A stretch of 64,000 nucleotides of DNA from an uncultured Hyphomicrobiales bacterium (lineage in GTDB: Bacteria > Bacteroidota > Ignavibacteria > Kapaibacteriales > UBA2268), in assembly GCA_964606895.1 (NCBI GenBank), contig CAZSHX010000008.1:17816-81815 (forward strand). The letters are read 5' to 3'. Under the pieces are notes generated by a model that was given only the letters and a program-made list of their open reading frames with translations, did no database searches and was not told the origin of the DNA. The translations under genes and the position numbers were made by a program. Every line of letters begins with the position of its first letter. The first letter of the stretch is position 1. Positions 3,666 through 63,941 of this stretch are shown here, one piece after another.

Positions 3666-3677
3666 TGGATTGATTAA

Positions 3678-4394
3678 ATGATTTCAATCAACTTTCATAG
3701 CAAAAAAAAACAAAAAGGCACAGGACCTGGTTCTGTGCCTTTCCTTTTATACTTTAAACTGAGAATTCTATTTGTTTTTTTTGTTGTTTCTTTCTTCCCA
3801 ATTTTTTCCCTTCATTCAGCAGAAACCAAATCTGAAAAAAGCGAAACCAATACGGCTTTCCTCTTTTCTTTGAAAAGTTTATTCACCCCTGAATCCGATT
3901 TTAATGGCGGAGTTGGTTTGCAATTCTATATTAAAAAAGATTTTGCTTTACGATTAAATTTTGGATTTGACTATTCTTCCGAAACGAGAAATAAACCATT
4001 GAATACTGAAAACGACTGGGTCTTTTCATCAAGCACAATCGAATTTATTCCGGCAATCAGGAAAGACTTTCTGAGCGAAGATAAAATTAAGATATATTCC
4101 GGTATTTGTGCAATTGTTTCTTATTCCGTTGACAACGAAACAGGTAGGGATTACAAGAATATTGATGTTGCAACCTCGAAAACAGGCTATGGCGGAGGTT
4201 TTTTCCTCGGGGCTGATTGGTTCCCCGTTAAGAACTTCAGTCTTGGTGCCGAATACCGGATGATTGCCAAAGGTACTTCAGGTTCTGTTGAAACAACCGA
4301 CGGTACCAATATACAAACGGACAAATCACCTTCTAAATTCAGCATCAATCTTAATGCTTCAAATATAAACTTCATCCTTGCTTATCATTTTTAG
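3678..4394 (+). CDS. Putative outer-membrane beta-barrel protein (start codon uncertain)
   Basis: A hydrophobic leader (ILFVFFVVSFFPIFSLHSAE) begins about 25 aa after the annotated ATG. The body shows an alternating amphipathic pattern. The C-terminus ends in aromatic F (ILAYHF), as in many OM barrels. Confidence 0.5.
   Translation: MISINFHSKKKQKGTGPGSVPFLLYFKLRILFVFFVVSFFPIFSLHSAETKSEKSETNTAFLFSLKSLFTPESDFNGGVGLQFYIKKDFALRLNFGFDYSSETRNKPLNTENDWVFSSSTIEFIPAIRKDFLSEDKIKIYSGICAIVSYSVDNETGRDYKNIDVATSKTGYGGGFFLGADWFPVKNFSLGAEYRMIAKGTSGSVETTDGTNIQTDKSPSKFSINLNASNINFILAYHF
3714..3749 (+). terminator. Candidate Rho-independent terminator hairpin after the 1509..3665 gene
   Basis: A 10-bp stem pairs aaaggcacag (3714-3723) with ctgtgccttt (3733-3742). 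The loop is 9 nt, with an A-run upstream and ccttttat downstream. It lies inside the 5' end of the ORF-track model 3678..4394. Confidence 0.45.
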
Positions 4395-4665
4395 TTTCTC
4401 CTATTTTTACAATAAAAATACGTATACAATCTTTCGAATCAATATTTGCTTATAAAAAAATATATTCCGTGGTTGCAAAATGTTGTATCGAGTTTATATT
4501 GTAATCATAGTAATTTAGAATTCAATTGAAGCTTCCAAACATTTTCATTATAGCAATTATCCTTTATTAATAGGCGATTACCTTGAAAGGAATTATTCGG
4601 TAAATGAGTGTTTCAGACAAAATATTTCCTGAATTTAATGGGGCTCGGTAAGTAAGAAATGAAAT

Positions 4666-7029: not shown

Positions 7030-7457
7030 TTTCCTTTTGTCCCGAAAAACAAAAATTTTTGGCTTATCAAATTATTTGCCATTTTTATGAACAAATTTCT
7101 TTCATTCTGCTAATCTGTTGATATAGAAAAACTTATTTTTCAAAACTATTTCACTGATTGTTAATATAGTGTTAACAATCTGTTAACTATTCTATTTTTA
7201 TAATATTTAAATTTTCCAAGAAAAAAAAGTTTCATTTTGAAAATATTGTTCTTGTCTGTTTAAAAAAAATTCTTGAATTTGATGTCAATAAAATTTCAAG
7301 TTTTAAAAAATCTATTTTTCTAATTAATACTTTTATATGCAAAATTTATTTTAAGTAAGAAGGTATTTTTGTCTTTACTTTAGAATAAGAATGTAGAAAG
7401 GCTGAATGAAATTTTATCGTAAGTTATTAATAAACATTATAAATAAAGGAGTTACCG
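7030..7457. promoter_or_regulatory. Very AT-rich dnaA upstream region; candidate dnaA promoter and possible replication-origin unwinding region
   Basis: This is 428 nt of non-coding sequence with long A/T runs directly upstream of dnaA. A 9-bp inverted repeat pairs gattgttaa (7156-7164) with ttaacaatc (7172-7180). I did not find canonical TTATCCACA DnaA boxes by eye. Confidence 0.3.
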
Positions 7458-8948
7458 GTGTTTAAAACAAACAATCCTGAAACCGTAGATTTGTTTTCTC
7501 AGGCTGATAGCCGAAAGGTTTCGGAAAAAAAGGATGCCGATAAGTTTTCTGATAGCGGAAATGCTGAGCTTCATTGGAATAAATGCCTTAATATCATAAA
7601 GGACAATGTTTCGACCCAAGTATTCAGAACTTGGTTCGAACCACTGAAAGCTATTTCAATCGAAGATTCGAAACTTTCCGTCAGAGTACCCAGCTACTTT
7701 TTCTGTGAATGGATTGAGGAGCATTTCGCACCTTTACTTCAGAAGACACTACAACAAGTGATTGGTGAGAATGCAAGACTGCAATATGATGTCGTTGTGG
7801 ACGACAACGGTGATTCGCTCGAAAAGAGGACAATCACTTTGCCGGGCTTTAAAAACGGAAGTCAGAAGAAACAAACGTCGTTGCCTTTTGCTCATAATCC
7901 TATTGCAGTTCAGGAGTTTCCATCTTTCCTGAATCCTCGCTATACTTTCGACGGCTTTATCCGCGGCGAGAGCAATCAGCTTGCAAGTTCAGCGGCTATG
8001 GCTGTCAGCCAGAATCCCGGAGGGACACGGTTTAATCCTCTTTTGTTTTATGGAGATACAGGAATCGGGAAAACCCATCTTGCTCAGGCAATCGGGAATT
8101 TTATCTGTCAGAAGAACAGAAAATCAAGAGTTCTCTACACAACAAGCGAGAGCTTTACAATGGAATTTGTTAACGCTATTCAGAACAATAAGACAAATGA
8201 ATTCATCAGCTTTTACAGAAGCATTGACGTTCTGATTGTTGATGATATTCAGTTTTTTGCAGGAAAAGAAAAAACACAGGATAATTTCTTTCATACTTTC
8301 AATGCACTTCATCAGGCAGGCAAACAAATTATTCTTACGAGCGATCGTCCGCCAAGAAGTCTTTCCGATGTTGACGACAGACTTATTTCCAGGTTCCAAT
8401 GGGGTTTGACTGTTGACATTCAGCGACCCGACCTTGAAATGAGAATGGCAATTCTTCAGAAGAAAAGTTTGGACGAAGGCTGGGAGCTTCCGATGGATAT
8501 CATCGAATTCATTGCAAAAAATGTTACCCATAGTGTTCGTCAGCTTGAAGGAATATTAATCAGTTTAACAGCAAAAGTTACTCTCGACAGACGAGAAATG
8601 AATCTTGAATTAGCCAAGGAAGTTGTTTTCGGCGTTGCTAATAACCAGCCGAAAATTCTGACAATAGATGATATCAAGGAAGCAGTTTCAGTTTATTACA
8701 ACATTCCGCTTACCGATATTGAATCCAAGAACAGAAAGCATGAGATAACACTTGCCAGACAAATGTGTATTTATATTGCCAAACAGCTGACTCAGCTCTC
8801 TCTGAAAAGTATAGGTTCAAATTTTGGCGGAAGAGACCACTCTACCGTTCTTCATTCGTGCCAGACTATTGAGAACTATCTTGTCACCGACCGTTCGGTT
8901 AAGCATGCTTACGAAGCTTTAATGAAGAAACTAAAAACGAATTCTTAG
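7458..8948 (+). CDS. dnaA: Chromosomal replication initiator DnaA (GTG start)
   Basis: Walker A is GDTGIGKTHL and Walker B is LIVDDIQF. The C-terminal DNA-binding helix region is RKHEITLARQMCIYIAKQLT...GGRDHSTVLHS. An AAGGAG-like SD (aaaggag) lies upstream of the GTG. Confidence 0.95.
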   Translation: MFKTNNPETVDLFSQADSRKVSEKKDADKFSDSGNAELHWNKCLNIIKDNVSTQVFRTWFEPLKAISIEDSKLSVRVPSYFFCEWIEEHFAPLLQKTLQQVIGENARLQYDVVVDDNGDSLEKRTITLPGFKNGSQKKQTSLPFAHNPIAVQEFPSFLNPRYTFDGFIRGESNQLASSAAMAVSQNPGGTRFNPLLFYGDTGIGKTHLAQAIGNFICQKNRKSRVLYTTSESFTMEFVNAIQNNKTNEFISFYRSIDVLIVDDIQFFAGKEKTQDNFFHTFNALHQAGKQIILTSDRPPRSLSDVDDRLISRFQWGLTVDIQRPDLEMRMAILQKKSLDEGWELPMDIIEFIAKNVTHSVRQLEGILISLTAKVTLDRREMNLELAKEVVFGVANNQPKILTIDDIKEAVSVYYNIPLTDIESKNRKHEITLARQMCIYIAKQLTQLSLKSIGSNFGGRDHSTVLHSCQTIENYLVTDRSVKHAYEALMKKLKTNS

Positions 8949-8989
8949 ATTTCAATCTTCGATTGAACACTTAACTTGATGAATAACAG

Positions 8990-9039
8990 AATGCCCTCTT
9001 GATTCGGTAAATAAACCAAAACTCAAGAGGGCATTTTTG
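8990..9039. terminator. Bidirectional Rho-independent terminator between convergent dnaA and the protease gene
   Basis: A perfect 12-bp stem pairs atgccctcttga (8991-9002) with tcaagagggcat (9023-9034), followed by ttttt. The sequence is homologous to the hairpin at 13809-13858. Confidence 0.7.
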
Positions 9040-9156: not shown

Positions 9157-11343
9157 CTACTTAATTAGCATCATTTTCTTTACGTCAACAAAATTGTTGC
9201 AGGTGAGCGTGTAGAAATACACTCCCGATTCTAAACCCGAATGCTCGAATTTAATATTAAACTTTCCGGCTTTGTGCTCGGCGGTATTGACAAGCTCGGC
9301 TACCTGCTGACCTAATGAATTGTAAACGGCAATCCTTGCATAACCTGCCTCGCCGATAACATAAGAAATATCGGTTGTACTGCTGAATGGATTAGGTATG
9401 TTTTGAAATAAAGAGGTAAGTAAAGGTACAGAATTTGTGCTTACTCTTTTTTCGGATTCAGACTGCGAAGGATTAATCCTATTATTCGAATTCCAAACGC
9501 ATGAATCATGTGCACTGCATCCTCTTTGATATATATTATGGTCGTCACTGGCTGAAATTGGGGCATTATCGCATGTTATCTTAGCCGAAAAGTTCACCCC
9601 CCAATTTATTTTGGTAGTTGGTTTGATAATAATTTTGGTAGCTGAACGCAAATTAAGATTCAGAGGATATTGGGGAACGGTATAGGTGTTATTTCGTACG
9701 TCTATACTATCATCCTCAAATATAGATGCAAAAAAAGGCAGAATGTAATTATTGTGGCATCCACCGCCAATATACAAGTCGTCAATATTAAAGTATGTAA
9801 CGCAAAATTCATCTTGATTTGCAGGGTCGCATAAAGGTGTTATTGTCGTTATATCCAAGTCATGGTTTCTTCCATATATATAAACCGGAAAGCCTACACC
9901 ATCTACAGATAAATCCCCTGAAGTCCAATTCGGAGCGAGCCAATGATGCAATGAAGTTTCATCTGTCCCGCCTCCTACCCATGACTCGCTGAATTTACCA
10001 CCCCACTCGTATTCAACATTACACGGGCTATTTATGGAATGAGACCGATGCTGAGCAATTACTTTATGTTCTTCATTAAAATACGGAGAACCGGAAGAAC
10101 CGTCATCAAAATAATTAACTCCATTCTCTGCTGACATTTTCCAATAAACTTGCCCCAAGTCTGCATGCTCAGGGGCATAATCAGTATTTGCTTCATCATC
10201 GTCAAAAGAAATTTGCATACCTACAGCATTTTGCCCCGGGAAATGAAGGCATGTGACTTTAGGCTCAGGTTCATTTACGGGACTTGTATATGACCATCCA
10301 GCATAAAATACGTTGTCTGAAATAGTGAAGGAATTATTAAGTTCAATTAATGCAAAATCCGTATTAATAAATGCTGAACGAAAACTAGCACCATTAAATG
10401 TATGATAATTTGAAATAGAAGAAGAATGCGAGCATGTCTGGTTCATATAGCTAAAATAAAATATATAATTTTCAATTTCATTTTTCTCTGCCTGACTAAT
10501 TATAAAATCATCATTTAAATCAATTCCATGATAAGCGGTCAGAACTAAAGAACCAGATGTAACTGGACTACCAGAAGTATAATTTAGTAGAACACCCGAC
10601 CATAAAATTGTACTATACAATATTCGAACTGTAGCCCTTTTTTCCCTGCACCACTCTTCACCTTCGGTACAGTTAACATTCTTTGAACAATCTGTCCAGT
10701 TCAAAATATTATCAAATTCAGAATTTTTAAAAATTGGACTATTAATTACATCAAGGAAACCATGTACAATTTTGCTTATATTGAATCTTCCTTCCCCAAT
10801 TACGTTTTTCGGCTCAAAATATTCAAAAGTTACTTCATCACCTTGGATCAATTCGGTTGAAAACTTGTTATTAATAAAATTATTTTTTTCAGTATAAGCA
10901 CCTAGAACCACAGACCTGTCGGAATTATAAATAAACAATCTACTTCCTTGTGACAAATGAAAGTTTGTAAAAATAAAATTCAGCGAGTATGCTTTTTCGG
11001 ATTTAACCCTCAATCTCCAAAGAATTGAACCATCGGGTAAAGTATCAACTGTTCCAGAATTATTTATATTGATATTTACATTATATTCATAGCCAAAAAC
11101 AAGGATTCCTCTTTTTTTACTTTCGTCAGCGGATACTTTTTTAGTAGAGTCAATATTAAATTCTATCATCGTCATCAATTCCAATTTCTCATGGGGGGTG
11201 ATTCCCTTTAAAGAATCACTTAACATTTTTAGATTGGTAGCACTAACTTGACAAAATAAATTTAATGATGCAATTAAATTGCAAAATATTGCAATAAATA
11301 ATATTTTAATATATTTCATTTTTATTTCCTTTTTTATCTCCAA
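9157..11343 (-). CDS. Secreted chymotrypsin-fold (S1) serine endopeptidase with a T9SS C-terminal sorting domain (alternative start at 11319)
   Basis: The DDGSSGSPYF serine motif and LTAYHG histidine motif are typical of trypsin-like or lysyl/glutamyl endopeptidases. It has a signal peptide (KILFIAIFCNLIASLNLFCQ). The CTD is IPNPFSSTTDISY...GVYFYTLTCNNFVDVKKMMLIK. Confidence 0.65.
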   Translation of the reverse strand: MEIKKEIKMKYIKILFIAIFCNLIASLNLFCQVSATNLKMLSDSLKGITPHEKLELMTMIEFNIDSTKKVSADESKKRGILVFGYEYNVNININNSGTVDTLPDGSILWRLRVKSEKAYSLNFIFTNFHLSQGSRLFIYNSDRSVVLGAYTEKNNFINNKFSTELIQGDEVTFEYFEPKNVIGEGRFNISKIVHGFLDVINSPIFKNSEFDNILNWTDCSKNVNCTEGEEWCREKRATVRILYSTILWSGVLLNYTSGSPVTSGSLVLTAYHGIDLNDDFIISQAEKNEIENYIFYFSYMNQTCSHSSSISNYHTFNGASFRSAFINTDFALIELNNSFTISDNVFYAGWSYTSPVNEPEPKVTCLHFPGQNAVGMQISFDDDEANTDYAPEHADLGQVYWKMSAENGVNYFDDGSSGSPYFNEEHKVIAQHRSHSINSPCNVEYEWGGKFSESWVGGGTDETSLHHWLAPNWTSGDLSVDGVGFPVYIYGRNHDLDITTITPLCDPANQDEFCVTYFNIDDLYIGGGCHNNYILPFFASIFEDDSIDVRNNTYTVPQYPLNLNLRSATKIIIKPTTKINWGVNFSAKITCDNAPISASDDHNIYQRGCSAHDSCVWNSNNRINPSQSESEKRVSTNSVPLLTSLFQNIPNPFSSTTDISYVIGEAGYARIAVYNSLGQQVAELVNTAEHKAGKFNIKFEHSGLESGVYFYTLTCNNFVDVKKMMLIK

Positions 11344-51083: not shown

Positions 51084-52235
51084 TTAAAACATGTGACATT
51101 TTTCAAGATTCATTTCGCATTTCGAGTAAAACTGAGGAATCTGCAAACTACGTGCGGCAACCTCAATAACAAATGCTTTTAGTTCACGGTTGTCTTCTTC
51201 AAGTTTAAGGATTACGGGTTTTTGGCCGCAAGAAAAATTCTTGAATAAGGTTCTTGCCGGAACCTGCATATAAACACTCATTCTGCTGAAGCCGAAATCC
51301 AATGTTTCCAGCATCCATTTTGTAATCCAACCATTTACAAGCGGAGTTGGGTCGTCCTTTAGCATGTGGAATTTTTCGAATCTGACCTGGAATGCAGAAA
51401 CTAAACCTTCAATTCTTATTTTCGGACGATTTTCGATTCTTTCTTTTATTCTTCGGATAAATTGGTCTGCATTTGAGTTGAGAACATCTTTCAATCTCAT
51501 ATCATAATTTTGTTTCAGGTAACTATTCAAAGTTTGGTCTTTCAAACCTTCATAAGCCTTCAAAGAATCGTTTATAAGCTTATGATTAATGGGGAATCTA
51601 TCCAAACAGCAAGTGATTTCTTTGTCCCTGAAAGCTCTATGGTAATAAATACGAATAGTAGATTCAGGATATATTTTGCCAACGGCTTCGTCAATGTGCT
51701 TCGAACCGTTTGTCATGAAAGTCTGGCAAGCGATATTTCTAGTGTTCATTCGAGTGAGCAATTCATCCCAAACTCTGATTTCATCTTTGGGTCCAATCTG
51801 ATAACCCAGGACAACCGTCGAGAGTGCGTCAATTGCCATGGCAAGAAACATCGTATTCGAAGTTGAGCCGGAACCTTTGCATGAACATGAAAAATTTCGA
51901 CCAACCAGATATACCAGCTTAGGTTCGTGCTTTGCAATATTAATATCCAGATATTCTTCCCAATTTGGGCACCCATCAAGAAATTCTCTGATTTTCTGAT
52001 TAATTCTTAGTGGCGAACTATGGTAGAAACCAACTAAGTCTCTGCAAGTTTTACCATTCAGATATTCCTCGACAATATATGACAAGTCAGGTTTGGAGGA
52101 TTCCATTTTTTCATGAACCCATGTTTTCCCACAGGTTCTACAGCGATAACGCTTATTGCCTGTCGTAGTCTTACCATGGCGGATAACTTTAGTACTCTTA
52201 CAAAATATACAAGCCTGTCGAATTTCATCATTCAT
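51084..52235 (-). CDS. IS1-like transposase-related protein (InsA-type zinc ribbon + degenerate InsB-like core), probably immobile
   Basis: The N-terminal ribbon is CIFCKSTKVIRHGKTTTGNKRYRCRTCGKTW. The central segment FMTNGSKHIDEAV aligns by eye with IS1 InsB WMTDGWPLYE but has D->N. No terminal inverted repeats are seen, and the gene sits 13 nt from the OsmC gene. Confidence 0.4.
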   Translation of the reverse strand: MNDEIRQACIFCKSTKVIRHGKTTTGNKRYRCRTCGKTWVHEKMESSKPDLSYIVEEYLNGKTCRDLVGFYHSSPLRINQKIREFLDGCPNWEEYLDINIAKHEPKLVYLVGRNFSCSCKGSGSTSNTMFLAMAIDALSTVVLGYQIGPKDEIRVWDELLTRMNTRNIACQTFMTNGSKHIDEAVGKIYPESTIRIYYHRAFRDKEITCCLDRFPINHKLINDSLKAYEGLKDQTLNSYLKQNYDMRLKDVLNSNADQFIRRIKERIENRPKIRIEGLVSAFQVRFEKFHMLKDDPTPLVNGWITKWMLETLDFGFSRMSVYMQVPARTLFKNFSCGQKPVILKLEEDNRELKAFVIEVAARSLQIPQFYSKCEMNLEKCHMF

Positions 52236-52487
52236 TAGATAATCCTAAAAATAAATATAGAATAAGCAAAAAACAAAATATGTACAAAATAAATATATTA
52301 AAAATTAATTAAAAAAAAACATATTTTTTTCAAAATCGTAAAATATTTTTTTGAATGTTGTTCTCGAAGGATTTTTACATTTTGGCAAACTATATATTTA
52401 ATGGCGACTTATAAATAATAATTGTAATAAGTCAATTAAAATGATTAATTTGCAGGAGTAATGATTGAATTTTTTTAGAAATGATTG

Positions 52488-52559
52488 TGACCCCAACGGG
52501 ATTCGAACCCGTACTGCCACCGTGAAAGGGTGGTGACCTATCCATTAGTCGATGGGGCC
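52488..52559 (-). tRNA. tRNA-Glu (anticodon UUC), no encoded CCA
   Basis: The minus strand reads GGCCCCATCGACTAATGGATAGGTCACCACCCTTTCACGGTGGCAGTACGGGTTCGAATCCCGTTGGGGTCA. It folds by hand into a 7-bp acceptor stem, 4-bp D stem, 5-bp anticodon stem with loop CTTTCAC, 4-nt variable loop, and T arm ACGGG/TTCGAAT/CCCGT. Confidence 0.9.
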
Positions 52560-53257: not shown

Positions 53258-53508
53258 AAAAGTCAGGTTTTCAAAATTTAGCTTTCATAAAAAGACATGG
53301 TTTTCTGACTATCCGTATTGTTTCTGCATTTAAACATCGATACTCAATATAAATCATTAACGCAGGAACAACAATCATAGTGGGAAAAATATTCTTTTTT
53401 ATCAATTTCTGTAACAAAACGCAATAAAATTTGTTATTGATAAAATGAATGTACAAATTTTTTGTTCATCTTTTTAGAAAAGTGTTTATTTTTGTTAAAA
53501 GGAAATGC

Positions 53509-54603
53509 ATGAGAAACATATTTTTATATATCACCCTCTTTTTTGGCTTCAGTTTGATGTCTTCTGAAGCTACTATGCTTGTTGGTGTACCCGAATTGGT
53601 TGACTTTGGCAGAGTGCTTATCAATTCTGCACCCGTTACCAAAAAAGCCACATTTACAAATACTTTGGGCAGAATAATGTCTTTCAAAAGTGATACACTT
53701 TTGCAAACTATGGACAGCCTTTTTGTTATAAACACAAAATTACCCTTCAGAATTGCTATCAGTCAATATTCAAATGCCGAATTTACCTTCAATCCCGGTA
53801 AAGGTAAATTCGGGATATTTTACGGCACAGTTTACTTTTTCAATAGTGAAAAACCCGAAGATTCAGCCAAAGTCATTCTAAGAGCAGAAATATACCAACA
53901 GGAAATTTTGAAAGAATTTGAAATCTCACTTCCGAACATAGCTTCTGCAACAGGCTCAAATATCCTTATTTCGATGATTCTTGGGAAATATACTTATGAC
54001 CAGAGGATTACAGGATTTGAAGCTACCGTGGAATTCAACAGTACATTGCTGACTATGACAAATCCCGAGGAAAGAGGGAATATCGAATTTGGGAGACAAA
54101 TCGTTAAGATTTCAAAAAAATTGACAGATACTCATCCATCAATAGGCGATACTCTTTATGTTTTGAATGCCACAACTCTATTGGGTAATGCACGTCAAAC
54201 TCCACTTACATTGAAAGATTTCAAATGGACGGGTGAAGTTGCAAATGCAGAATTCAGAGTAAACAAACTTTCGGGTTCGGTTTTGCTTCAGGATATTTAT
54301 TTTGATAATGGAATACCGCGGTTACTTACCCGAATGGATAACACTCTGAAAATTGAATCTTCTAATAATGTTTTCAATTCGGATTTTGAACTTCAGTGCT
54401 CTTATGTTAATTCGGCTCAGTTCAAAATAATTGATGTTTTGGGAAATCAGATTGTTGACCTATCAGCAAAATGTCCATTACATAATCTTTTTTCAACTGA
54501 AAAAATTACTATCCCAAGAAGTACTTTTACGAATCGGGGTATTTACATCGCAGTTCTTTCCGGTCCGAAACAAGTAGTCTCAAAATTGCTGATTATAGAG
54601 TAA
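53509..54603 (+). CDS. Secreted protein of unknown function with a T9SS-like C-terminal domain
   Basis: The start is taken at MRNIFLYITLFFGFSLMSSEA. The C-terminal segment is FELQCSYVNSAQFKIIDVLGNQIV...GIYIAVLSGPKQVVSKLLIIE. Confidence 0.45.
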   Translation: MRNIFLYITLFFGFSLMSSEATMLVGVPELVDFGRVLINSAPVTKKATFTNTLGRIMSFKSDTLLQTMDSLFVINTKLPFRIAISQYSNAEFTFNPGKGKFGIFYGTVYFFNSEKPEDSAKVILRAEIYQQEILKEFEISLPNIASATGSNILISMILGKYTYDQRITGFEATVEFNSTLLTMTNPEERGNIEFGRQIVKISKKLTDTHPSIGDTLYVLNATTLLGNARQTPLTLKDFKWTGEVANAEFRVNKLSGSVLLQDIYFDNGIPRLLTRMDNTLKIESSNNVFNSDFELQCSYVNSAQFKIIDVLGNQIVDLSAKCPLHNLFSTEKITIPRSTFTNRGIYIAVLSGPKQVVSKLLIIE

Positions 54604-54607
54604 TTTA

Positions 54608-56245
54608 ATGAACAGAACCATTAAGATAACAATATTATTGTTTTTCGTTACCTTGATTTGTTCTGCAAATTCCGGTCAAAATTTATTCTTTGGAATTGGT
54701 TTCGAGTATGGCAAACTCTTCAACCAAATCAATTTCAATGCACTTCCCGGCATTCCGCGTCCTAATATTCCGCTAACCGGAGAATCCCAATTCTGGAATT
54801 ACCGGATTAATGCCAATATGGTTTACAGAGTTGGAAGTTTTATTCAGACAGGACTTAGATTTGATTATGCAAACACACCTACTTACTCGTACAGGGATTT
54901 GGAATCTACTCTTATTGGTCGCGACGGCATTCCGGAAAAAGCAATAATCGAGAACACAATGAATTTAAAATTCGATGAAATTGGCGGCGAGCCGTTTGTC
55001 GGATTTTTCATTAATGATATTTTGTCTTTGAATTTTGGTCTTAGATTCGGTTATATATATAATTCTGAGTTTACTCAGAATCAGAAAGTTATTCAACCCG
55101 CAGATTATGGTTTTAATTCGCCTATCGGCAAATATTCCGGTAAAATACCACAAGCAGTAAAAATGCTTTATCAGACTTCTGTCAGACTTGAATCGGAAAG
55201 CAGTATCCTTCAGTTGCGAAACTTCAAATTCAAGCCGGAAATTCAGTTCCTGTATTCTCTGAATAATATGATTACCGGGCTTAACTTTAAATATTACAAC
55301 ATCACCGGTGGAATTTCCATAAGCTATATTAATTCACCCCAGCCACCTATTATTCGCGATACGGTAATTGTTCGTGATACGATTGAAGTGCTGTCCGGTG
55401 CAAGTTCTGAAAAACACACCTCACTGAAATCCACTATATCAAAGAGCGAGTTAATCGGCAGAAGGGAAATTACTACGTTAACACAAAGCCACGAAACAAT
55501 TATTCCCAAGACTAAACCAATGCTGATTGGAGAAGTTTCGGCTGTATTTATGTTTGCAGACAAACCGGAAACAAAAAGATTTAATCTTGAATTTGAGAAG
55601 ACTGTAATAAAATTTGTTTATCCAGCATTCTCAAGCCAAAAAGGAAAAATCGTTTTCGGCAAAAAGCTTGAAATCAAGACCGATTCTACAGCAACTTTAT
55701 TAATTCCAACTGTCAACTTCTACCCTAAAGTAACAGCCGAGTCAGGCTTGAAGGAATGGACACTTTCAATCAGCGAAAATTACAAGGAACTCAAAAGGAT
55801 TTCAGGCACTCTGGATATTCCCTCGAAAATTGAATGGGAACCAACCAATCATTTTAAAAACGAGGAAATTATCGGTAAAAATTTCCATTACAAACTTGAA
55901 CTCGAAGATTTTGACAGCAACAAAGTAACTGCCGCAACAGGTTCGATTGATTTTAATGAAACCGGCAAAAATGACATTTTAAACACAAAAATTATTCAGT
56001 TTGTTGTTATACCTGCAGATTCGAAAAACTTTAAGCAATTCATTGATCATATTGAAAAAGCTTCATCCGGGAAAAAAGTAAAACCTTATCGTGTTTTTAC
56101 TGATTCGGAATTTCATCCTAATGCAAAACTCGAATCTGAACTTTCAAAGTATGGACTAATTGGAACAAAATCCTTTAAAGGAATATTTAATGGAATATTT
56201 TCAGAATTCCCTGTCTATAATTATTATGTAATTGCAGTTGAGTAA
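54608..56245 (+). CDS. Secreted or outer-membrane protein of unknown function
   Basis: It has a signal peptide (ITILLFFVTLICSANS) and a beta-strand-rich N-terminal half. It starts 4 nt after the upstream stop, so the two are probably co-transcribed. Confidence 0.4.
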   Translation: MNRTIKITILLFFVTLICSANSGQNLFFGIGFEYGKLFNQINFNALPGIPRPNIPLTGESQFWNYRINANMVYRVGSFIQTGLRFDYANTPTYSYRDLESTLIGRDGIPEKAIIENTMNLKFDEIGGEPFVGFFINDILSLNFGLRFGYIYNSEFTQNQKVIQPADYGFNSPIGKYSGKIPQAVKMLYQTSVRLESESSILQLRNFKFKPEIQFLYSLNNMITGLNFKYYNITGGISISYINSPQPPIIRDTVIVRDTIEVLSGASSEKHTSLKSTISKSELIGRREITTLTQSHETIIPKTKPMLIGEVSAVFMFADKPETKRFNLEFEKTVIKFVYPAFSSQKGKIVFGKKLEIKTDSTATLLIPTVNFYPKVTAESGLKEWTLSISENYKELKRISGTLDIPSKIEWEPTNHFKNEEIIGKNFHYKLELEDFDSNKVTAATGSIDFNETGKNDILNTKIIQFVVIPADSKNFKQFIDHIEKASSGKKVKPYRVFTDSEFHPNAKLESELSKYGLIGTKSFKGIFNGIFSEFPVYNYYVIAVE

Positions 56246-56870: not shown

Positions 56871-58046
56871 TTAGTCTTTAACACAACGAACTGAAAACCC
56901 GTAGCCCTTACTACTTCCATACCTGCCGACGACGGCGTGATCGCAGTCCAAGCTCTGAGCCCACGCATACGTCGCATCGAGCTCAGTGGACGACCACCAA
57001 ACACCGTAGCCCCCTATGTCGCTAAATGTTATCCCACCATAGTCACGACATCCCCCGGGAAGGGCGGAAAAGTTGCTTGAGTTTGTCGCACCTGTGTTTG
57101 GACTTCTCCAGTGGCTCGTTCCTGTCTCTTTCATCTTTCCTCCAGCAACACTTCTACCACCTAGAAATGTTGTTAGAGCTGTACATTCTGCATCAGATGG
57201 CACCAGCCAGCCAATTGGTGCCAAGCCTCTCGGATCATTTACTGCATACCAATTATAAAGTTTACCGTAGATTTTCCCATTTGCAGGGTCGTTGTTGTAA
57301 TAGCACCATGCTCCAGTTGTTAGATTTGCCCATGCTGTGGCATCTTTTACTTCAGGTATTGAGTCGCCATTACGGTAGTGGTCAACATTAAGGTTTTTAA
57401 GCATCCATACCTGAGTGCCGATTGTTACCATTTCAGCAGTTTCTGGTGGAGTTATTATGAATTCTACTTCATTACTTTTTACTCCATTTACAGTTACGTA
57501 AACTTTTCCGCTTGTTGCTCCAGTTGGCACTTTTACTTTGATGTCTGTGTCGCTCCAACTTGAATATTCTGTAGCTTTTGTACCGTTAAATGAAACAGAG
57601 CTTATTGTTTGACTTGCTCCAAATCCACTGCCATAGATAGTCACAACATCACCTATTCTTGCTGACGTTGGTGTTATACTGGTTACTTGAAATGTTTTCA
57701 CAGGATCTACAGTAAAATCCACTTCATTGCTTTTAACTCCATTTACAGTAATGTAAACTTTTCCGCTACTTGCTCCTGTCGGTACTTTGGCTTTTATTTG
57801 TGTATCATTCCAACTTGTGTAAATGGTCGCTTGTGTATTATTGAATGATACGTAACTTGTATTTTGAATGTCACCAAAATTAATACCTGATATGGAAACA
57901 ATATCCCCGATACTTGCTGAGGTTGGGGTAATAGATGTAATTTTAAATGTACTACTTGTATCAGGCGTATCTGTAGTATTATTCTTACTACAGCTAAACA
58001 AAATAGATAATGCAATGATTAATAATAACAAAATTCTGATTCTCAT
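56871..58046 (-). CDS. Lipoprotein with two IPT/TIG-like domains and a Fibrobacter-succinogenes-major-paralogous (FISUMP) domain
   Basis: It has a lipobox (ALSILFSCS). A duplicated ~95-aa unit is present (ITSITPTSA.IGD.V.I.G.GFG......VSFNGT.A...SW.DT.IK.KVPTGA.SGKVY.TVNGVKSNEV.F). The C-terminal signature is VTIGTQVWMLKNLNV...GKLYNWYAV...GW.VPS..E...L...GGKMKE...W......TN.SGFSALPGG.R.......G..G.WWSS. The 3' part is visibly G+C-richer than its surroundings. Confidence 0.8.
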   Translation of the reverse strand: MRIRILLLLIIALSILFSCSKNNTTDTPDTSSTFKITSITPTSASIGDIVSISGINFGDIQNTSYVSFNNTQATIYTSWNDTQIKAKVPTGASSGKVYITVNGVKSNEVDFTVDPVKTFQVTSITPTSARIGDVVTIYGSGFGASQTISSVSFNGTKATEYSSWSDTDIKVKVPTGATSGKVYVTVNGVKSNEVEFIITPPETAEMVTIGTQVWMLKNLNVDHYRNGDSIPEVKDATAWANLTTGAWCYYNNDPANGKIYGKLYNWYAVNDPRGLAPIGWLVPSDAECTALTTFLGGRSVAGGKMKETGTSHWRSPNTGATNSSNFSALPGGCRDYGGITFSDIGGYGVWWSSTELDATYAWAQSLDCDHAVVGRYGSSKGYGFSVRCVKD

Positions 58047-58739
58047 GATAATAACCTTTTAGTTTTACATTTGATTCAACATACAAATCTAATAACTTAT
58101 ATTCAATATATTACAAAAAAAATCATACTTGCATAGTTGTCGGACAGCGGACAAAAATCAGTCTTTGCAACTTACTAATTAACAACCACTTACAAGCGAG
58201 CTAAATTCTGTCCTGTCCGACTGTTTAACACAATGATATTTAACCAACCTAATTAACTAATTATTCATCAGAAAGGAGAACCTTTATGGACGAGCAAATT
58301 GTCCTGAAAGACAAAGCAATTCAGATACTGCCTGAATCTATTATTGAGCAGTTCAGAGCAGAAGAGCAAGACCGACGAAACGAGCAAACTTCAAAGGATA
58401 TATAGTTCGGCAACGACCTGGCAAGCAAGGGCAAACTTGGGATTATATCACAGGCTTGACGCTATGCGATGGCTTGACAGTATTATCCAAGAAGGATTAG
58501 TCAAACATGTCAATCAGACTATATTGACTATCCGCAAATCTTTCGCATCTCCATCCAAATTTATAGGGTGGAGGTGTTGGAGAGGGGGAAAATCGTATAA
58601 AACAAAAAATGCCAGCAAATCTGCCAGCATTTAGTTTGTGACTGTCCTAAGTGCCTTTATTGTAAGGTTAATAGGCTTTAGTAAAGTGGGCCCTGAGGGA
58701 CTATTGGATTCCTATATATTTCAATGCCTTATGTTACTA

Positions 58740-58985
58740 CTATTTTATTTTTGCCAAATTATTAGCCAAATTAGTGTTTTTTCTATGCTTTTTATCCAAA
58801 ACAATCAAGCTGAGAAAAGCAAAATGTTTTCCTAAACTATAAACAATAAAAAATACACCACTATCATAATGGTCGTTATTCAAAGATAATTGCTCGTTAT
58901 TTAGAGCTTGACCTTCAAATACGTCAATAACCGCTTTGATTGCGTCTAATTGGTACTCTTGATTAGGGCCGAAATTAAGTTTCAT
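58740..58985 (-). pseudogene. 5' stub of a type III restriction Res (helicase-nuclease) gene; only about the first 30-45 codons look native
   Basis: The N-terminus MKLNFGPNQEYQLDAIKAVIDVFEGQ matches the conserved start I know from type III Res subunits (MKLxFxxxxxYQxxAIxxVVDxFxGQ). The remainder is low-complexity, and the ORF ends after 81 aa versus about 900-1000 aa expected. No further minus-strand ORF lies downstream. The start overlaps the upstream stop as ATGA. Confidence 0.5.
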
Positions 58986-60214
58986 TGGATAACACTTCTT
59001 AAATTTTGTGGTATAGAAGGTACACCTACTCTACCCATATAAGATAAATATCTTTGCCTAAGTTGTTGAATATAAGGGCTATTTATTTTTAATACTCTCT
59101 TTTTCTTATTAGTGTCTAAAAAGTGACCACCTTTTAGTTTTAATGAAAACCTGAAATCAATTAATGCTGTTTGCCTATCAGATTCACTAAATGCAAATAT
59201 AGGTAGTAAATGTAGAGCAGATATTTCTTGATTATACGCCCGAATTATTTCTTCATTTGTTTTACAAAAATCATTGATAGTTTTAAAACTCTTTTTAGTA
59301 AAGCAGAGTAATTCAACCTTTTCATTCCTTTTAATAAGTTTAGACAAATCACATTCAGGAGAAATTACAATTCCAAAATTCTCTTTACTGAGTTGATAAA
59401 TATCTCCAGTCATAATTGAATCAGTTTCTTGGGGCTTAGAATAATAGAGTTTAGAATATAAATTGAGAATTTCATTTGTTTCAGTTATGCTTTTAAAATT
59501 TGCTACCGAGTAATCACTAATTGACTTTTTTAGTGATGTCTCTTGTATCAGTCTTTCGGAAATTAGATTCTGAAATAATGTAATAACTTCAATTGTAGGA
59601 TCAAGTTCAATAACAGTCGGTTCACCTGTTGTTTTATTGAATTTTCTTACAGAGCTATAAAAAAGTTCTTTAATCCAATATTTATCAGCCTGTTCTAATT
59701 CTGAGAATATTGATTGTGAAGCTTGGTTAATTGTCTGACTCCAAATGAAAGGTACATTCAAATGCTTATTTTTATCTTCAAAGGAATTAATACCATCAAT
59801 AATTTTCTTATATTCTTTATCTGATTCGTTCATGTTCCCTTTAATTTCAAAAAATATTTTATCATTATACAAAGACTGTAATTCCTCCTTTATTTCTTGA
59901 GCAATCTCATTCATTGAATACAAATAGACAAGGGAAAATATTTTCTGAGATTTTAAAAACTGAAACGGATTTTCATCAGGTATGTCTATGAAATTTTCAT
60001 CATCGTCATGTTCTTCAACTTTCCGTTCAAAATTCCAATCAAGAATCAAAGCTTTTATAGTTGACATTGAAGCGACTGCTTTTTCAAGGGTACTTAGATT
60101 GTTTATTGGTAAAATAGAAAAATTAACATCAGAATTAAATTTCTGAAAAAGTTTATTTTCTTCTCTATCAGTATCAAAAATATGATCATCGGCAAATAGT
60201 ATTATTCCTTCCAT
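58982..60214 (-). CDS. Receiver (REC)-like domain protein with an uncharacterised ~270-aa C-terminal domain
   Basis: The start is taken at ATG 60214, with AGGAG 7 nt upstream and 1 nt after the upstream TAA; the ORF-track start at 60277 would overlap by 62 nt. The REC-like pattern is GIILFADD (D9,D10), ALILDW (D59), LVYLYS (S100) and FFEIKG (K125). The C-terminal domain (e.g. GDIYQLSKENFGIVISPECDLSK, INSPYIQQLRQRYLSYMGRVGVP) is not recognised. Confidence 0.55.
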   Translation of the reverse strand: MEGIILFADDHIFDTDREENKLFQKFNSDVNFSILPINNLSTLEKAVASMSTIKALILDWNFERKVEEHDDDENFIDIPDENPFQFLKSQKIFSLVYLYSMNEIAQEIKEELQSLYNDKIFFEIKGNMNESDKEYKKIIDGINSFEDKNKHLNVPFIWSQTINQASQSIFSELEQADKYWIKELFYSSVRKFNKTTGEPTVIELDPTIEVITLFQNLISERLIQETSLKKSISDYSVANFKSITETNEILNLYSKLYYSKPQETDSIMTGDIYQLSKENFGIVISPECDLSKLIKRNEKVELLCFTKKSFKTINDFCKTNEEIIRAYNQEISALHLLPIFAFSESDRQTALIDFRFSLKLKGGHFLDTNKKKRVLKINSPYIQQLRQRYLSYMGRVGVPSIPQNLRSVIQ

Positions 60215-60215
60215 T

Positions 60216-62447
60216 TTATTGCTCCTGATTAAATTTAACAATGAAATTAGCACCAGGGAGTAGTCCTTCTTGTCCATTCTGAACTACCGAAATTTCTCCA
60301 TTAATTCGGAGAAGTATTTCTTTAACGATGTAAAGTCCTAAGCCTCGACCATCTAATTTTAAAGAAAAGAACTCATTATAAATCATCGGAATTACATCTT
60401 CACGGATGCCGGGTCCGTTGTCTGCAATAATTATTGAGCTACTTTTACTATTAAGTTTAAATATAATTTCTTTATCTTTGGATTGATTTTTGTTTACCCA
60501 ATAAACAGCATTATCCAGTAGGTTTATCAAAATTTGCAGGATAAGACCGGTATTGGTTTTAATAATAACATCCTCATCTTTTAATATTTTTACAGTAATT
60601 TTTCCATCTATATCACGCCTGAAATATTTGATAACTTTTTCAATACTTTCATAAACACTTACATCCTTTATTGCTTTACGTTGGTTTTTAAATAGCGGTT
60701 GAATTACTTGCATTTCGTCATATACAAAATTTAGATTTTCATCTAATTCACTCAGCAGTGAAATTAAATCTGTATTAGTAAAATCATGATTCTTTGCTTT
60801 AACTCTAAAGTCTTTTACATTATTTCTCATTTTTGAAAGAAGGGTGAGAGCATCATGCGAAGCTTTTTCTACAGCCATTCCAAGACCAGCTAAATCTTCA
60901 ACTATTTCCATCCTGTCTTTCATCATTATGTTATGTTTTTTTACAGTGTTAAGGAACTTGTTTGCTTTTTCAAGTACTTCCCTGTTGTCTATCTTCTCAA
61001 GACTTGATTTTAAGGAGTTGAATGATTTCTCAACAATATCGACAGAATCACTAAATGATTTCTCTTTTAAAATATTAGCTTTATTTTCGTCAATCTTCTT
61101 TTCTGTATTTAATACTTGCGTAACCAAAGTAACAAGTTTCTTGAAATCCTCATATGCTCCATCAATATTCATCATCCCTTGACGATTGGTTGAGTCTTTC
61201 AATAATGGATTTTCATTTTGCCCCTGTCCAATATAAACAAAACCAGTTAAATCATTATAACTAATATAATCTCCAGCACGTACTCTTGCCCTTAATTTAT
61301 CTAATTCAAGCCAATCATAACCAGGTTCCCCGAAAGGATAAACTCTCACACCATCTCGAAATAAATATACAAAGTTTTGCTTAATAAATTGTTCAATCTC
61401 TTTTGTTAATATGGTTTTATCCCTATTTTTCAAATTAAAAGCATAAAATGAGAATTTAAAATATCCACAAATTGGCTTTCGGTTAAATTCAGTAAACCAA
61501 TCTTTGGTTGTCTGTGATGGATATTGATATTTACTTAGAGATTCTATGCTTAGCAAATCAATTTCTCTGTTTTTAATTTCTCTATAAGGTGCAGTAGATT
61601 TATAAGTGAATTTCAAAATTCCTTCTGCAGTGACTTCACCAATCATCGTAAATTGAGCTCTTTCGATTACATCACTGAAAGTGATAATGTCTTCAGGAGC
61701 ATATTCTTTTTTATTAACAAACATTTTTACAATGAAATCTTGCTTAAAATCTATTTCAAGTGTCTTTGCATTTTCATCTTTTGGAGGTATTAATCGTTGA
61801 ATAGATTTAAACAACTCCTTGAAATCATTAGAATTCCAATTCTCCCTCATGTTGTATATCCTGATCAACGTTCCTTTTTCTTTTTTGATTTCTTCGGGTG
61901 GATTATTTACAAACCAGCTATTGCTAACATCTTCAAGTAACTTGTATTCTTCTGGTGGTTGATTGAACAAATCAGCCTTCTCTGGATTGTATTCAGTATA
62001 ATCCATTTCGAGTCTAATTTCGTTGTTGTTGATTGCTTTTGTATAAAGTCCTATTTTCTCACCCAGCTTATGAATAGCAAATCTACCAATTCCTTTTTCA
62101 CCCTGAATAATTCTACCTTTTACTGTAATATTCTTCTTTTGTTTTCTTTTATCTAATTTTACTGGTGTTGCAGGTCTAAGCCAAACATTAGTGATAGTTT
62201 CTAATGTCATACCATCACCATCATCTTCAACTTCGATAAACGGCTGTTCTTTCTCAGTTAAATAATTCTTTCCATAATTATCCATATTACAAAATCGTAC
62301 TTGTACATTTTCTGCATCAGCATCATAACAATTTTTTAAAATTTCTATAATTGCTACTTTTTTATCAGTAATCAACTGATCACCAATAATATTTATCAAC
62401 CGTGCATAAGGCTTAAATGGTTGACTATTTTGATTAATTATTGCCAT
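60216..62447 (-). CDS. Dual GHKL protein: N-terminal MORC/Hsp90-type ATPase (HATPase_c_3-like) fused to a C-terminal histidine-kinase DHp + CA module
   Basis: The N-terminal Bergerat-fold motifs are EILKNCYDADA (N-box), EDDGDGMT (G1) and GEKGIGRFAIHKLG (G2). The C-terminal part has an H-box-like LGMAVEKASHDALTLL (His531, codon 60857-60855), N-box LINLLDNAVYW, G1 ADNGPGI and G2 DGRGLGLYIV. No TM segments. Confidence 0.7.
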   Translation of the reverse strand: MAIINQNSQPFKPYARLINIIGDQLITDKKVAIIEILKNCYDADAENVQVRFCNMDNYGKNYLTEKEQPFIEVEDDGDGMTLETITNVWLRPATPVKLDKRKQKKNITVKGRIIQGEKGIGRFAIHKLGEKIGLYTKAINNNEIRLEMDYTEYNPEKADLFNQPPEEYKLLEDVSNSWFVNNPPEEIKKEKGTLIRIYNMRENWNSNDFKELFKSIQRLIPPKDENAKTLEIDFKQDFIVKMFVNKKEYAPEDIITFSDVIERAQFTMIGEVTAEGILKFTYKSTAPYREIKNREIDLLSIESLSKYQYPSQTTKDWFTEFNRKPICGYFKFSFYAFNLKNRDKTILTKEIEQFIKQNFVYLFRDGVRVYPFGEPGYDWLELDKLRARVRAGDYISYNDLTGFVYIGQGQNENPLLKDSTNRQGMMNIDGAYEDFKKLVTLVTQVLNTEKKIDENKANILKEKSFSDSVDIVEKSFNSLKSSLEKIDNREVLEKANKFLNTVKKHNIMMKDRMEIVEDLAGLGMAVEKASHDALTLLSKMRNNVKDFRVKAKNHDFTNTDLISLLSELDENLNFVYDEMQVIQPLFKNQRKAIKDVSVYESIEKVIKYFRRDIDGKITVKILKDEDVIIKTNTGLILQILINLLDNAVYWVNKNQSKDKEIIFKLNSKSSSIIIADNGPGIREDVIPMIYNEFFSLKLDGRGLGLYIVKEILLRINGEISVVQNGQEGLLPGANFIVKFNQEQ

Positions 62448-63708
62448 GTTTCACCTTCTTTGCTATTAAAATGTATTCTTCAGGATAAACAAGTTTACTA
62501 TCTTTATTATCTAATTTGGAGAATTTTCCTGTTTTTTTGTCTCTAATAGTCGGTATTAACTTATTCGGGATACTTCTTTTTATAATTTCTATCATTTCAA
62601 ATCCAATAGATGTTAACATTTCGGTAAAAACTTCAGCAGATTTTATTTTAACGTTATTGAAAGTTGTATTACCAATTACTAAACAAATGTGACCATCGTT
62701 CTTTAAAATTCTTTTCATTTCCTTCGCAACAGATTGCATATCATTAAAGTAATTAGCTACTTCTTTAGCTTTTCGTTTATCTTTTTCAGCAAGATTATTT
62801 ACTATTTCTTGTGCTATTCCTGAAAAACAACTTAGTTCTTGATTTAAAGAATAAAAAGTTCCAATAAAGTTTTTTCTAAATTTAGTTAGGTCAGTAATAT
62901 ACTCGTACCAATATGCGGTTAGTTGATGAATATCCGCATATTCATAAGATGTAACATAAGGAGGAGATGTAATAATTGCACTTACGGAATTTGCTCTTAT
63001 TGATGTTTTTCGAGCATCCTCCAATCTGATTTCACATTTTGTTTTAAAGAATTTCTGTGTTACCAGTTGGTTATAAAATTCTGAGTTCTTTTTTATCATC
63101 TGTTTTGAATGTGCAGGAAAAGCTAAAAAAGGATCTGTTGGCACTTTCTTAGGATCAATCTGTGGTTTTGTACTTGATTGCAACCACTTTGAGCAATTTT
63201 TCAATATATGAGACAATGAAACAAGGAAAAATTCCTTAATAGTTTCATCATTTATATCCAAAATTTTATCATAAAGGAAAGCAATTTTAGATTTGTATTC
63301 TTGAGAAAACCAGTAGTCCAATCGGTCGTGAACTGATAAATTAGAATATTTATCTATGTCAAATAATGCGAAGTTATTGACAATCAAGTTAAATTGCTGT
63401 TCTAATTCTTTCGGCTCAATAGGGTTAGTTTTAGCTTTAGTAATAAGCTTTGCAACTGGATTGATATCTACACCAATAGATTTTCTACCATGCACTTTTG
63501 CTTCTACAAGCGTAGTTCCACAACCTGCGAACAAATCGGCAATCAAATCATTCTTTTGAGTATATTCTTCAATTAGCTTTTTTACTAAGTTTGGTAGAAA
63601 TTTAGCTGGGTATCTATGATAACCGTGTGTCCATTGCTCAACAGAACGGACGTTAGTGAAACACCATTCAGGACTTACTTCGATATTTTCAAAATCTCTG
63701 TAAAACAT
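62434..63708 (-). CDS. N6-adenine/N4-cytosine DNA methyltransferase (motif order X-I ... IV)
   Basis: HGYHRYPAKFLP plus DLFAGCGTTLVEAKVHGRKSIGVDINP (AdoMet motif I) lie at the N-terminus. The catalytic motif IV, IITSPPYVTSYEY, is about 180 aa later. An SPPY variant is commonest in N4-cytosine enzymes but not diagnostic. Confidence 0.85.
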   Translation of the reverse strand: MFYRDFENIEVSPEWCFTNVRSVEQWTHGYHRYPAKFLPNLVKKLIEEYTQKNDLIADLFAGCGTTLVEAKVHGRKSIGVDINPVAKLITKAKTNPIEPKELEQQFNLIVNNFALFDIDKYSNLSVHDRLDYWFSQEYKSKIAFLYDKILDINDETIKEFFLVSLSHILKNCSKWLQSSTKPQIDPKKVPTDPFLAFPAHSKQMIKKNSEFYNQLVTQKFFKTKCEIRLEDARKTSIRANSVSAIITSPPYVTSYEYADIHQLTAYWYEYITDLTKFRKNFIGTFYSLNQELSCFSGIAQEIVNNLAEKDKRKAKEVANYFNDMQSVAKEMKRILKNDGHICLVIGNTTFNNVKIKSAEVFTEMLTSIGFEMIEIIKRSIPNKLIPTIRDKKTGKFSKLDNKDSKLVYPEEYILIAKKVKHGNN

Positions 63709-63710
63709 TT

Positions 63711-63941
63711 TTATCCCGTTCTAAAATCCACACCAGCATCCTTGGATTGCTGGATTATGTTTGTTTTTAAATTTCGATAATCATCAAATAACCATAATAT
63801 TAACTTCATATAATTTCGATTAAATAAATTCTCACTGCGACTAGCTCTTAAACCAAGATATTCCAACGTTTCTTTTGATAATTCCCTTGGAAAAAGTTCC
63901 TTCAACTTCTCAATAGTTTTCTCTTTAATAAAAAAAGACAT
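63711..63941 (-). CDS. Small protein of unknown function, first gene of the methyltransferase operon
   Basis: This 76-aa ORF ends 2 nt before the methyltransferase ATG. No motif is recognised, so coding status rests only on position and length. Confidence 0.35.
   Translation of the reverse strand: MSFFIKEKTIEKLKELFPRELSKETLEYLGLRASRSENLFNRNYMKLILWLFDDYRNLKTNIIQQSKDAGVDFRTG

Follow-up and report, generated by a model that had tools for sequence, protein, structure and literature searches.

We analyzed a stretch of 64,000 nucleotides (nt) of DNA from an uncultured bacterium (contig CAZSHX010000008.1 of GenBank assembly GCA_964606895.1), called the window in the following, and in it the gene of a response-regulator-like protein, called the regulator. 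The gene belongs to an operon on the minus strand with the order small open reading frame (ORF) of 76 amino acids (aa), DNA methylase, sensor kinase, regulator, ORF of 81 aa and terminator-like hairpin. An earlier note, made from the DNA letters alone, had proposed a receiver-like domain fused to an unrecognized C-terminal domain, which in a defense context would be the output or toxic part. The regulator and its parts are listed here with the evidence for each assignment in brackets:

58982–60214, minus strand: response-regulator-like gene, 410 aa plus stop codon (ORF, start codon, homologues, AlphaFold2 (AF2) model)
59771–60214, minus strand: receiver (REC) domain, residues 1–148 (fold model, Foldseek, residue conservation, remote Pfam matches)
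59966–60031, minus strand: acidic disordered insertion, residues 62–83, in the β3-α3 loop beside the acceptor Asp (predicted local distance difference test (pLDDT) values, family-wide length and charge)
59429–59770, minus strand: helical linker or middle domain, residues 149–262, with invariant W158 and W180 (model, alignment)
58985–59428, minus strand: basic, β-rich predicted output domain, residues 263–410 (invariance, model pLDDT of 90, isoelectric point (pI))

The ORF at 58982–60214 is real. The earlier note had given its span, to which we add the minus strand, and all the strings quoted there stand at the residue numbers given, with MTGDIY...ISPECDLSK at residues 268–292, ALHLLPIFAF at 333–342 and LKINSPYIQQLRQRYLSYMGRVGVPSIP at 375–402. 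The plus-strand frame of the same span is riddled with stop codons. On the minus strand the longest frame extends to 60277, and translation from the methionine codon at 60212–60214 gives the product of 410 aa. We consider the methionine at 60214 to be the true start because the kinase gene upstream ends with a stop codon at 60216–60218, which leaves a gap of 1 nt, and because all homologues share the N-terminus MEG(V/I)ILFADD. With 410 codons in DNA of 28% G+C, the ORF is far beyond chance.

A word-indexed search retrieved 232 homologues at E≤1e-3, about 400 aa long, mostly from Bacteroidota and nearly all unnamed or annotated as 'hypothetical'; none of them carries a precomputed Pfam domain. 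An exhaustive profile search with the same threshold found 451 cluster representatives, which split into a close family (E below ~1e-58) and, after a gap in score, a remote full-length group beginning at about E 1e-21. When compared with hhalign, the close family and the remote set matched from end to end (probability 100%, E 4.4e-49, 371 columns, residues 2–406). All conservation counts given below refer to 151 close full-length homologues and 70 remote full-length relatives. The architectures among the representatives listed are receiver fusions of ~400 aa or fragments, and only one has an extra domain: the remote relative P0260 (584 aa) is a full-length response-regulator-like protein that carries a GIY-YIG nuclease domain (PF20815, E 3.8e-16) at its C-terminus.

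The receiver spacing that the earlier note had read from the acidic pair in GIILFADD (D9/D10), the candidate phospho-acceptor in ALILDW (D59, codon 60038–60040), S100 and K125 proved invariant or nearly so. D9, D59 and K125 are present in 151/151 close homologues, D10 in 148/151, S100 in 150/151 (the remaining one has T) and F122, a further key residue, in 144/151. Conservation of the acceptor extends to the remote relatives, of which 60/70 have Asp in the D59 column, the other 10 being unaligned there. The spacing of three residues between F122 and K125 is presumably that of Y106/K109 in CheY. A comparison of a provisional CheY sequence with the family profile aligned ILDWNF with ISDWNM at a probability of merely 3.9% and was set aside.

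An AF2 model of the full regulator, built from a 35-sequence alignment (mean pLDDT 85), predicts strands at residues 4–8, 33–37, 53–59, 95–100 and 120–124 and helices at 18–28, 40–49, 84–89, 106–119 and 131–148. The N-terminus thus models as the CheY-like (βα)5 fold that had been anticipated, in which β1, β3, β4 and β5 carry the conserved Asp, Ser and Lys at their C-terminal ends. In a Foldseek search of the PDB the top 50 matches were all receivers or receiver-like domains (best E 1.5e-4; template modeling (TM) scores of 0.6–0.75, normalized to the small targets), among them PorX, CheB, HupR, RcsB and the wing domain of Lys/Arg decarboxylases. At E≤0.01, remote relatives matched Response_reg_2 (PF19192, 10/70), Response_reg (7/70) and the receiver-like OKR_DC_1_N (13/70), and two exceeded the Pfam cut-offs, P0182 for PF19192 (29.2 bits versus a gathering threshold of 27 bits) and P0212 for PF00072. 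The insertion behind the acceptor strand, described earlier as unusually acidic, recurs across the family in its length and charge (median 20 aa, 33% D/E, mean net charge −4.4), the sequence itself being unconserved. In the regulator the acidic stretch EEHDDDENFIDIPDEN occupies residues 67–82, and pLDDT falls below 50 solely at residues 68–79. The whole receiver domain is acidic, with a pI of 4.4.

The two genes upstream of the regulator are:

60216–62447, minus strand: sensor kinase, 743 aa (Pfam, motif invariance, homology to AbrB)
62434–63708, minus strand: N6/N4 DNA methyltransferase (Pfam N6_N4_Mtase, 9e-29; PADLOC MTase_II, 7e-61)

The methylase gene overlaps the start of the kinase gene by 14 nt. 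The kinase has an N-terminal paraMORC-type GHKL ATPase (HATPase_c_3, 8e-17, residues 30–169), a dimerization and histidine phosphotransfer (DHp) domain with H531-D532 and a C-terminal HATPase_c domain (2e-17, residues 636–739). A weak match to HEF_HK (PF19191) at residues 522–585 scored 15.4 bits versus a cut-off of 24.1 and is below threshold. Invariant in 35 kinase homologues are the Bergerat motifs (E35, N39, DxGxG at 75–79 and GxxGxG), the DHp histidine with its neighbor (H531-D) and the N, G1, F and G2 boxes. AbrB is the kinase of Ambrosia, an experimentally validated anti-phage system of Pseudomonas that consists of AbrR-AbrA-AbrB-AbrC-AbrD, all of which are required (10.1101/2025.09.30.679545). 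BLASTP of the window kinase against AbrB, represented by its first 399 aa from Table S1 of the Ambrosia preprint, gave an identity of 27% in 435 aligned positions (E 6e-36). The defense context that the earlier note had supposed thus takes a concrete form, with the gene tied to a DNA methylase and to a paraMORC-type kinase homologous to AbrB. Residues 30–218 of the kinase also match the first 185 of the 659 positions of the NCBIfam model 'BbrUII/HgiDII family restriction enzyme' (E 1.5e-15), and AbrB is labeled 'RM_Type_II__Type_II_REases' in Ambrosia Table S1, which may mean that annotation pipelines mistake kinases of this type for restriction enzymes.

To the 38 related genome loci that we fetched we added loci from contig look-ups, called and clustered the genes, and counted linkage over the 34 non-redundant loci with enough flank. 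The kinase gene is immediately upstream of the regulator gene in 34/34 loci, the modal gap being 1 nt as in the window, and the methylase gene lies upstream in 33/34. Among the 33 loci with a downstream gene, 15 have the next gene on the opposite strand, so that the operon ends at the regulator and holds no nuclease, and 11 related loci have an XRE/HTH_3 controller upstream. Hence, the trio of methylase, kinase and regulator alone appears to be worth regulating. An intact Type III restriction gene, Res (ResIII + RE_endonuc), follows the trio in two loci (L033 and L043; PADLOC REase_III, 8.7e-302) and an HNH nuclease gene follows it in two loci; these downstream nucleases are tightly coupled to the trio, by an overlap or by a gap of ≤38 nt. 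In five loci, the small ORFs that follow the regulator were considered as antitoxins or nuclease stubs and rejected: they share no relationship with one another or with the nucleases, and appear to be spurious or housekeeping.

Some of the related loci depart from this arrangement or lie in another setting. A second protein of ~820 aa with HATPase_c_3, and hence GHKL-only, is encoded between methylase and kinase in six loci (L001, L007–L009, L015 and L020; for example at 5274–7739 of L001), and PADLOC gives it only weak matches to Type II restriction enzymes. In L042, a Bacteroidetes metagenome-assembled genome, the methylase, kinase and regulator genes (~10000–11200 and upstream) are all in ORF fragments, and the trio is pseudogenized. 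Another trio is located on a conjugative alphaproteobacterial plasmid of Allorhizobium pseudoryzae (L125, NZ_CP049245.1, locus 3478–9027), where its genes bear the annotations 'class I SAM-dependent methyltransferase', 'sensor histidine kinase' and 'hypothetical protein'. The next gene encodes a hypothetical protein of 265 aa, and a PemK/Phd toxin-antitoxin pair nearby is unrelated.

The earlier note had treated the remaining ~270 aa of the regulator as one domain with conserved-looking blocks. The region divides into a helical linker and a basic β-domain. About half of the close homologues lack the β-hairpin 189–202 of the linker. Modeled alone, residues 149–410 have a pLDDT of 90. The motifs of the output domain are TGD (269–271), PECD (286–289), F354, K376, P380, QR (387–388) and R395-x-G-x-P. 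Within the close family, G270, D271, E287, C288, F354, P380 and G397 are invariant (151/151) and R395 is found in 149/151. The 70 remote relatives keep R395 (70), C288 (69), G397 (68), D271 (67), D289 (66), P380 (66) and F354 (60), and G270, R/K376, Q387 and R/K388 also persist among them. Of the D, E and C residues of GDIY...ISPECDLSK that had been singled out for a check, D271, E287 and C288 are invariant in close homologues, and the Glu among them is lost further out. The residues of G-D, P-x-C-D and R-x-G-x-P that are invariant across the superfamily are typical of an active or binding site, which we predict here from their conservation. The output domain has a pI of 9.4, and its last 38 residues one of 11.5.

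Known domains did not account for this part of the protein. No recurrent family for the C-terminal ~260 aa emerged from Pfam at E≤10 with the regulator and 30 diverse members, NCBIfam, PADLOC and PHROGs had no match to the C-terminal half, and PDB sequences searched with full-length and C-terminal profiles yielded nothing relevant. In these same collections no helix-turn-helix (HTH), nuclease, TIR, SIR2, PNP or protease domain was detected in the C-terminal ~260 aa, nor a housekeeping output domain, in agreement with the earlier note. The reading given in that note is supported, as none of the three outcomes that it had named as refuting occurred. Two specific candidates were rejected. A papain-like Cys-His-Asp triad (C288, H335, D353) was dismissed with H335 present in only 10/70 and D353 in 28/70 remote relatives. 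A PD-(D/E)xK nuclease site made from GD...ECD would require an αβββαβ topology, and the predicted topology is a β-barrel with helices; moreover, E287 is unconserved, and the restriction-endonuclease fold is not among the Foldseek matches.

The structure search did return a lead. The best PDB match of the C-terminal model in Foldseek was MazF-mt1/MazF9 (6kys_B; probability 0.96, E 0.07, TM score 0.58 on the target, root-mean-square deviation 5.5), and the second-best match in BFVD was a phage 'Endoribonuclease' (probability 0.75, a weak match). With GD(I/V)(Y/F) and then hhh(S/T)P, the domain opens in a way similar to PDB-verified MazF sequences. The predicted order β-β-α-β-(insert)-β-β-β-α-β-α agrees, as we take it, with the topology of MazF. 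However, 6kys_B is the only MazF in the Foldseek top 50 although the PDB has >20 distinct MazF/Kid sequences, and the equivalent of the S1-S2 loop, mapped by eye, has ~4 residues (KENF) and no conserved Arg, so that the loop of the MazF catalytic Arg is nearly gone. We also aligned 25 MazF/PemK sequences, three verified as identical to PDB chains and the others homologues from viral contigs; comparison with this profile by hhalign was insignificant in local, maximum-accuracy and global modes, as judged by reversed and block-shuffled controls. Pfam scans of 30 diverse members gave no match to PemK_toxin or CcdB. We therefore keep a MazF/CcdB-like barrel for residues 263–410 as a lead, not a result, since the profile comparison was insignificant and the catalytic-Arg loop is nearly absent.

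If this lead were followed, the C-terminal domain could be a highly diverged toxin of the MazF/CcdB fold, either an RNase or a poison of a GHKL/gyrase-type enzyme, that is kept inactive by the unphosphorylated receiver, and the trio would be an abortive-infection or addiction module. The two Foldseek matches, the MazF-like start and the frequency of nuclease-less trios would fit such a toxin. With an insignificant profile comparison, one MazF among the top 50, a catalytic loop cut to ~4 residues and no antitoxin-like partner among the small downstream ORFs tested (5 loci), we nevertheless regard an autonomous toxin as quite unlikely.

The basic C-terminal half of the regulator, with its Q/R-rich helix, could instead bind DNA in a non-enzymatic way. 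The phosphorylated regulator would then be a transcription factor that binds an operator and induces the methylase/nuclease operon on infection. The homology of the window kinase to AbrB is in line with this, as in Ambrosia the reporters that replace AbrA/AbrD are induced on infection and phosphorylated AbrC was proposed as the activator (10.1101/2025.09.30.679545). However, AbrC, at 209 aa, has no similarity to the regulator, and neither Pfam nor Foldseek gave an HTH or winged-helix match (the HSF1 DNA-binding domain appeared with a probability of just 0.06). An invariant Gly-Asp and Pro-x-Cys-Asp would also be unusual for a DNA-reading surface, and 11 loci already have a separate XRE regulator. 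Hence, a transcription factor of this kind seems unlikely to us.

On balance, we lean towards the regulator being the response-regulator partner of a soluble paraMORC-type kinase in a methylase-linked defense module, with the C-terminal domain acting as a phospho-gated nucleic-acid effector or licensing output. This reading draws on the observed architecture together with the conserved residues, the invariant linkage of the genes and the kinase's homology to AbrB. The N-terminal GHKL/MORC-like ATPase of the kinase would sense an infection- or DNA-related cue, the C-terminal catalytic domain would phosphorylate H531, and the phosphoryl group would pass from H531 to D59 of the regulator. Phosphorylation could then alter the acidic receiver and free the basic GD...PxCD domain as the output, which may act on nucleic acid or license a neighboring nuclease. 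The frequent lack of a nuclease and the XRE controller speak for a trio that is potent in itself; the nuclease fusions and the tight coupling of nuclease genes speak for a licensing role.

Several observations weigh against this reading. The regulator itself did not match PF00072 or PF19192 in Pfam at E≤1. E287 and H335, as well as N328 and N378, are not kept in remote relatives. The C-terminal model had no Foldseek match at E≤1e-3, so that a catalytic fold could not be assigned, and the MazF profile reached an hhalign probability of 1.1% (score 16.2 versus 13.5–14.0 for reversed controls). Nucleases recur as separate or fused partners, which suggests that the output domain is therefore not itself the nuclease. 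For the short AbrC, the authors of the Ambrosia study favor a purely transcriptional output (10.1101/2025.09.30.679545). The toxic or effector function attributed to the C-terminal domain in the earlier note stays conditional, and a role in regulation or in licensing a nuclease stands on an equal footing because the nuclease partners vary and one GIY-YIG fusion exists.

We also put forward, tentatively and with more doubt than belief, a bolder version. The GD...PxCD...RxGxP domain might be a new class of phosphorylation-gated nucleic-acid effector, possibly an extremely diverged barrel of the MazF/CcdB type. The trio might then be a self-contained immune or addiction system without a conventional restriction nuclease, in which the MORC-like ATPase would read the state of the DNA and the His-Asp phosphorelay would fire the effector.

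The operon in the window is flanked by three further features:

63711–63941, minus strand: small ORF, 76 aa, 2 nt upstream of the methylase gene (ORF call)
58740–58985, minus strand: stub of a Type III restriction gene, Res, 81 aa (PADLOC REase_III positions 1–37, E 5e-6; BLAST)
58607–58632, minus strand: terminator-like hairpin with an 11-bp stem and a T tail, ~100 nt after the stub (consensus scan only)

The start of the stub overlaps the stop codon of the regulator gene (ATGA). Its homology to Res is confined to the first ~36–43 residues, as seen when it was compared by BLAST with the Res genes (~880 aa) in L033 and L043, and the ~700 bp beyond it (58046–58740) hold no recognizable Res remnant, the hairpin and an unannotatable plus-strand ORF of 96 aa (58344–58634) being located there. 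With the 81-aa ORF as the N-terminal remnant of Res, the window locus has therefore lost its helicase-nuclease, and at most the three-gene core is functional there. This loss raises the question of whether the locus as a whole is a decaying remnant in which a methylase was left behind with a purposeless kinase/regulator pair, whatever the mechanism in intact loci. The shrinkage of Res to 81 codons, about half of them homologous, and the fragmented trio of L042 would agree with decay. On the other hand, all three ORFs in the window are intact with every invariant residue present, and 15 related loci without a downstream nuclease keep intact trios; we therefore consider a remnant rather improbable. 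The hairpin at 58607–58632 probably marks the end of the operon. At its other end, the 76-aa ORF occupies the position of the XRE/HTH_3 controller of 11 related loci; it has no similarity to that controller and no match in Pfam, PADLOC or PHROGs. The trio (58982–63708) has a G+C content of 28–31%, versus 37% in the rest of the window (1–58000), which is consistent with horizontal acquisition.

Further from the trio, a minus-strand ORF of 383 aa (51084–52235) has an InsA-type zinc ribbon, the N-terminus of an IS1-like transposase, and adjoins a minus-strand tRNA-Glu(TTC) gene at 52487–52559; a mobile element may have inserted near this tRNA gene. Directly past the Res stub, a minus-strand ORF at 56871–58046 is lipoprotein-like and carries two IPT/TIG repeats as well as a Fibrobacter succinogenes major paralogous domain. 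The neighboring ORFs at 53449–54603 and 54608–56245 have no Pfam match.

We compared the trio with known systems. A computational study of 2021 described Response_reg_2 (PF19192) together with HEF_HK (PF19191) as a two-component-like pair near restriction-modification (R-M) systems and paraMORC ATPases, with a linkage of 91.6%, an enrichment of R-M genes and the proposal that they arose from paraMORC ATPases (Bellieny-Rabelo et al. 2021, PMC8011034). For the response regulator, that study describes just the receiver part and nothing on the C-terminal ~260 aa (PMC8011034). The gene order of these pairs is the same as in the window, with a methylase, a kinase of HATPase_c_3, DHp and HATPase_c, and a response-regulator-like protein of ~400 aa without other known domain; ResIII, HNH and N6/N4 methylase genes occur nearby. 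In contrast to these pairs, the window protein and its Bacteroidota-centered clade fall below the Pfam thresholds. Judged by its sequence, the regulator is a divergent branch of the pairs described in 2021.

Ambrosia is the closest system with experimental support. Its genes encode an XRE regulator, an N6 methylase, the HATPase_c_3/HATPase_c kinase AbrB of 747 aa, the receiver protein AbrC and an HNH nuclease; the substitutions AbrC D60A and AbrB N40A each abolish phage defense, infection induces the operon, and phage are not protected by pre-methylation (10.1101/2025.09.30.679545). AbrC (209 aa) is labeled Response_reg, is said to carry a winged HTH and lacks the GD/PxCD C-terminal module, and no similarity between it and the regulator family was detectable (hhalign probability 0.3%). 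AbrA is labeled N6_Mtase/MmeI-type, whereas the window methylase is N6_N4_Mtase. Ambrosia has XRE upstream and HNH downstream, whereas the window has the unrelated 76-aa ORF upstream and the Type III Res stub downstream; Ambrosia-like XRE...HNH flanks do occur in the related loci L036 and L037. Since AbrC is short and dissimilar, two kinds of regulator appear to serve this kinase family, a short AbrC type and a long PF19192 type.

Other systems share single elements with the trio. MORC/paraMORC R-M systems were described without a histidine-kinase half or receiver protein (Iyer, Abhiman and Aravind 2008, PMC2292703). Type III R-M differs by an intact Res beside the methylase, in place of which the window has the 81-aa stub only. 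The MazF/PemK/Kid toxins of the CcdB/MazF fold gave the best, though weak, structural matches to residues 263–410, and lack the invariant Cys-Asp and R-x-G-x-P motifs of the output-domain family. Mza, reported by Gao and colleagues in 2020, is placed here alongside the MORC/paraMORC R-M systems. Detocs reportedly has a phosphorelay that ends in a receiver-effector fusion, with a different kinase, a buffer receiver, a PNP effector and no methylase. The likeness to the trio would lie in this ending of the relay; no PADLOC model, those for Detocs included, matched the regulator, and Pfam found no PNP domain in it. Two candidates were set aside, the methylation-associated defense system MADS as unrelated, being without the GHKL kinase or receiver pair, and the GHKL-Shedu protein VcSduA for its unrelated architecture.

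Overall, methylase-linked defense modules that contain a paraMORC histidine kinase occur widely. Their existence was predicted in 2021, and in 2025 Ambrosia, a member of this group, was found to protect against phages and to depend on its phospho-acceptor Asp. The regulator is a divergent member of this predicted family, which has one validated relative system, and its output domain has no recognizable relatives. The long PF19192-type regulator adds to such modules ~260 residues with invariant, catalytic-looking positions and no relatives in the domain and structure libraries searched, and the trio would let the coupling of a MORC-like ATPase to a His-Asp phosphorelay be studied in a tractable system.

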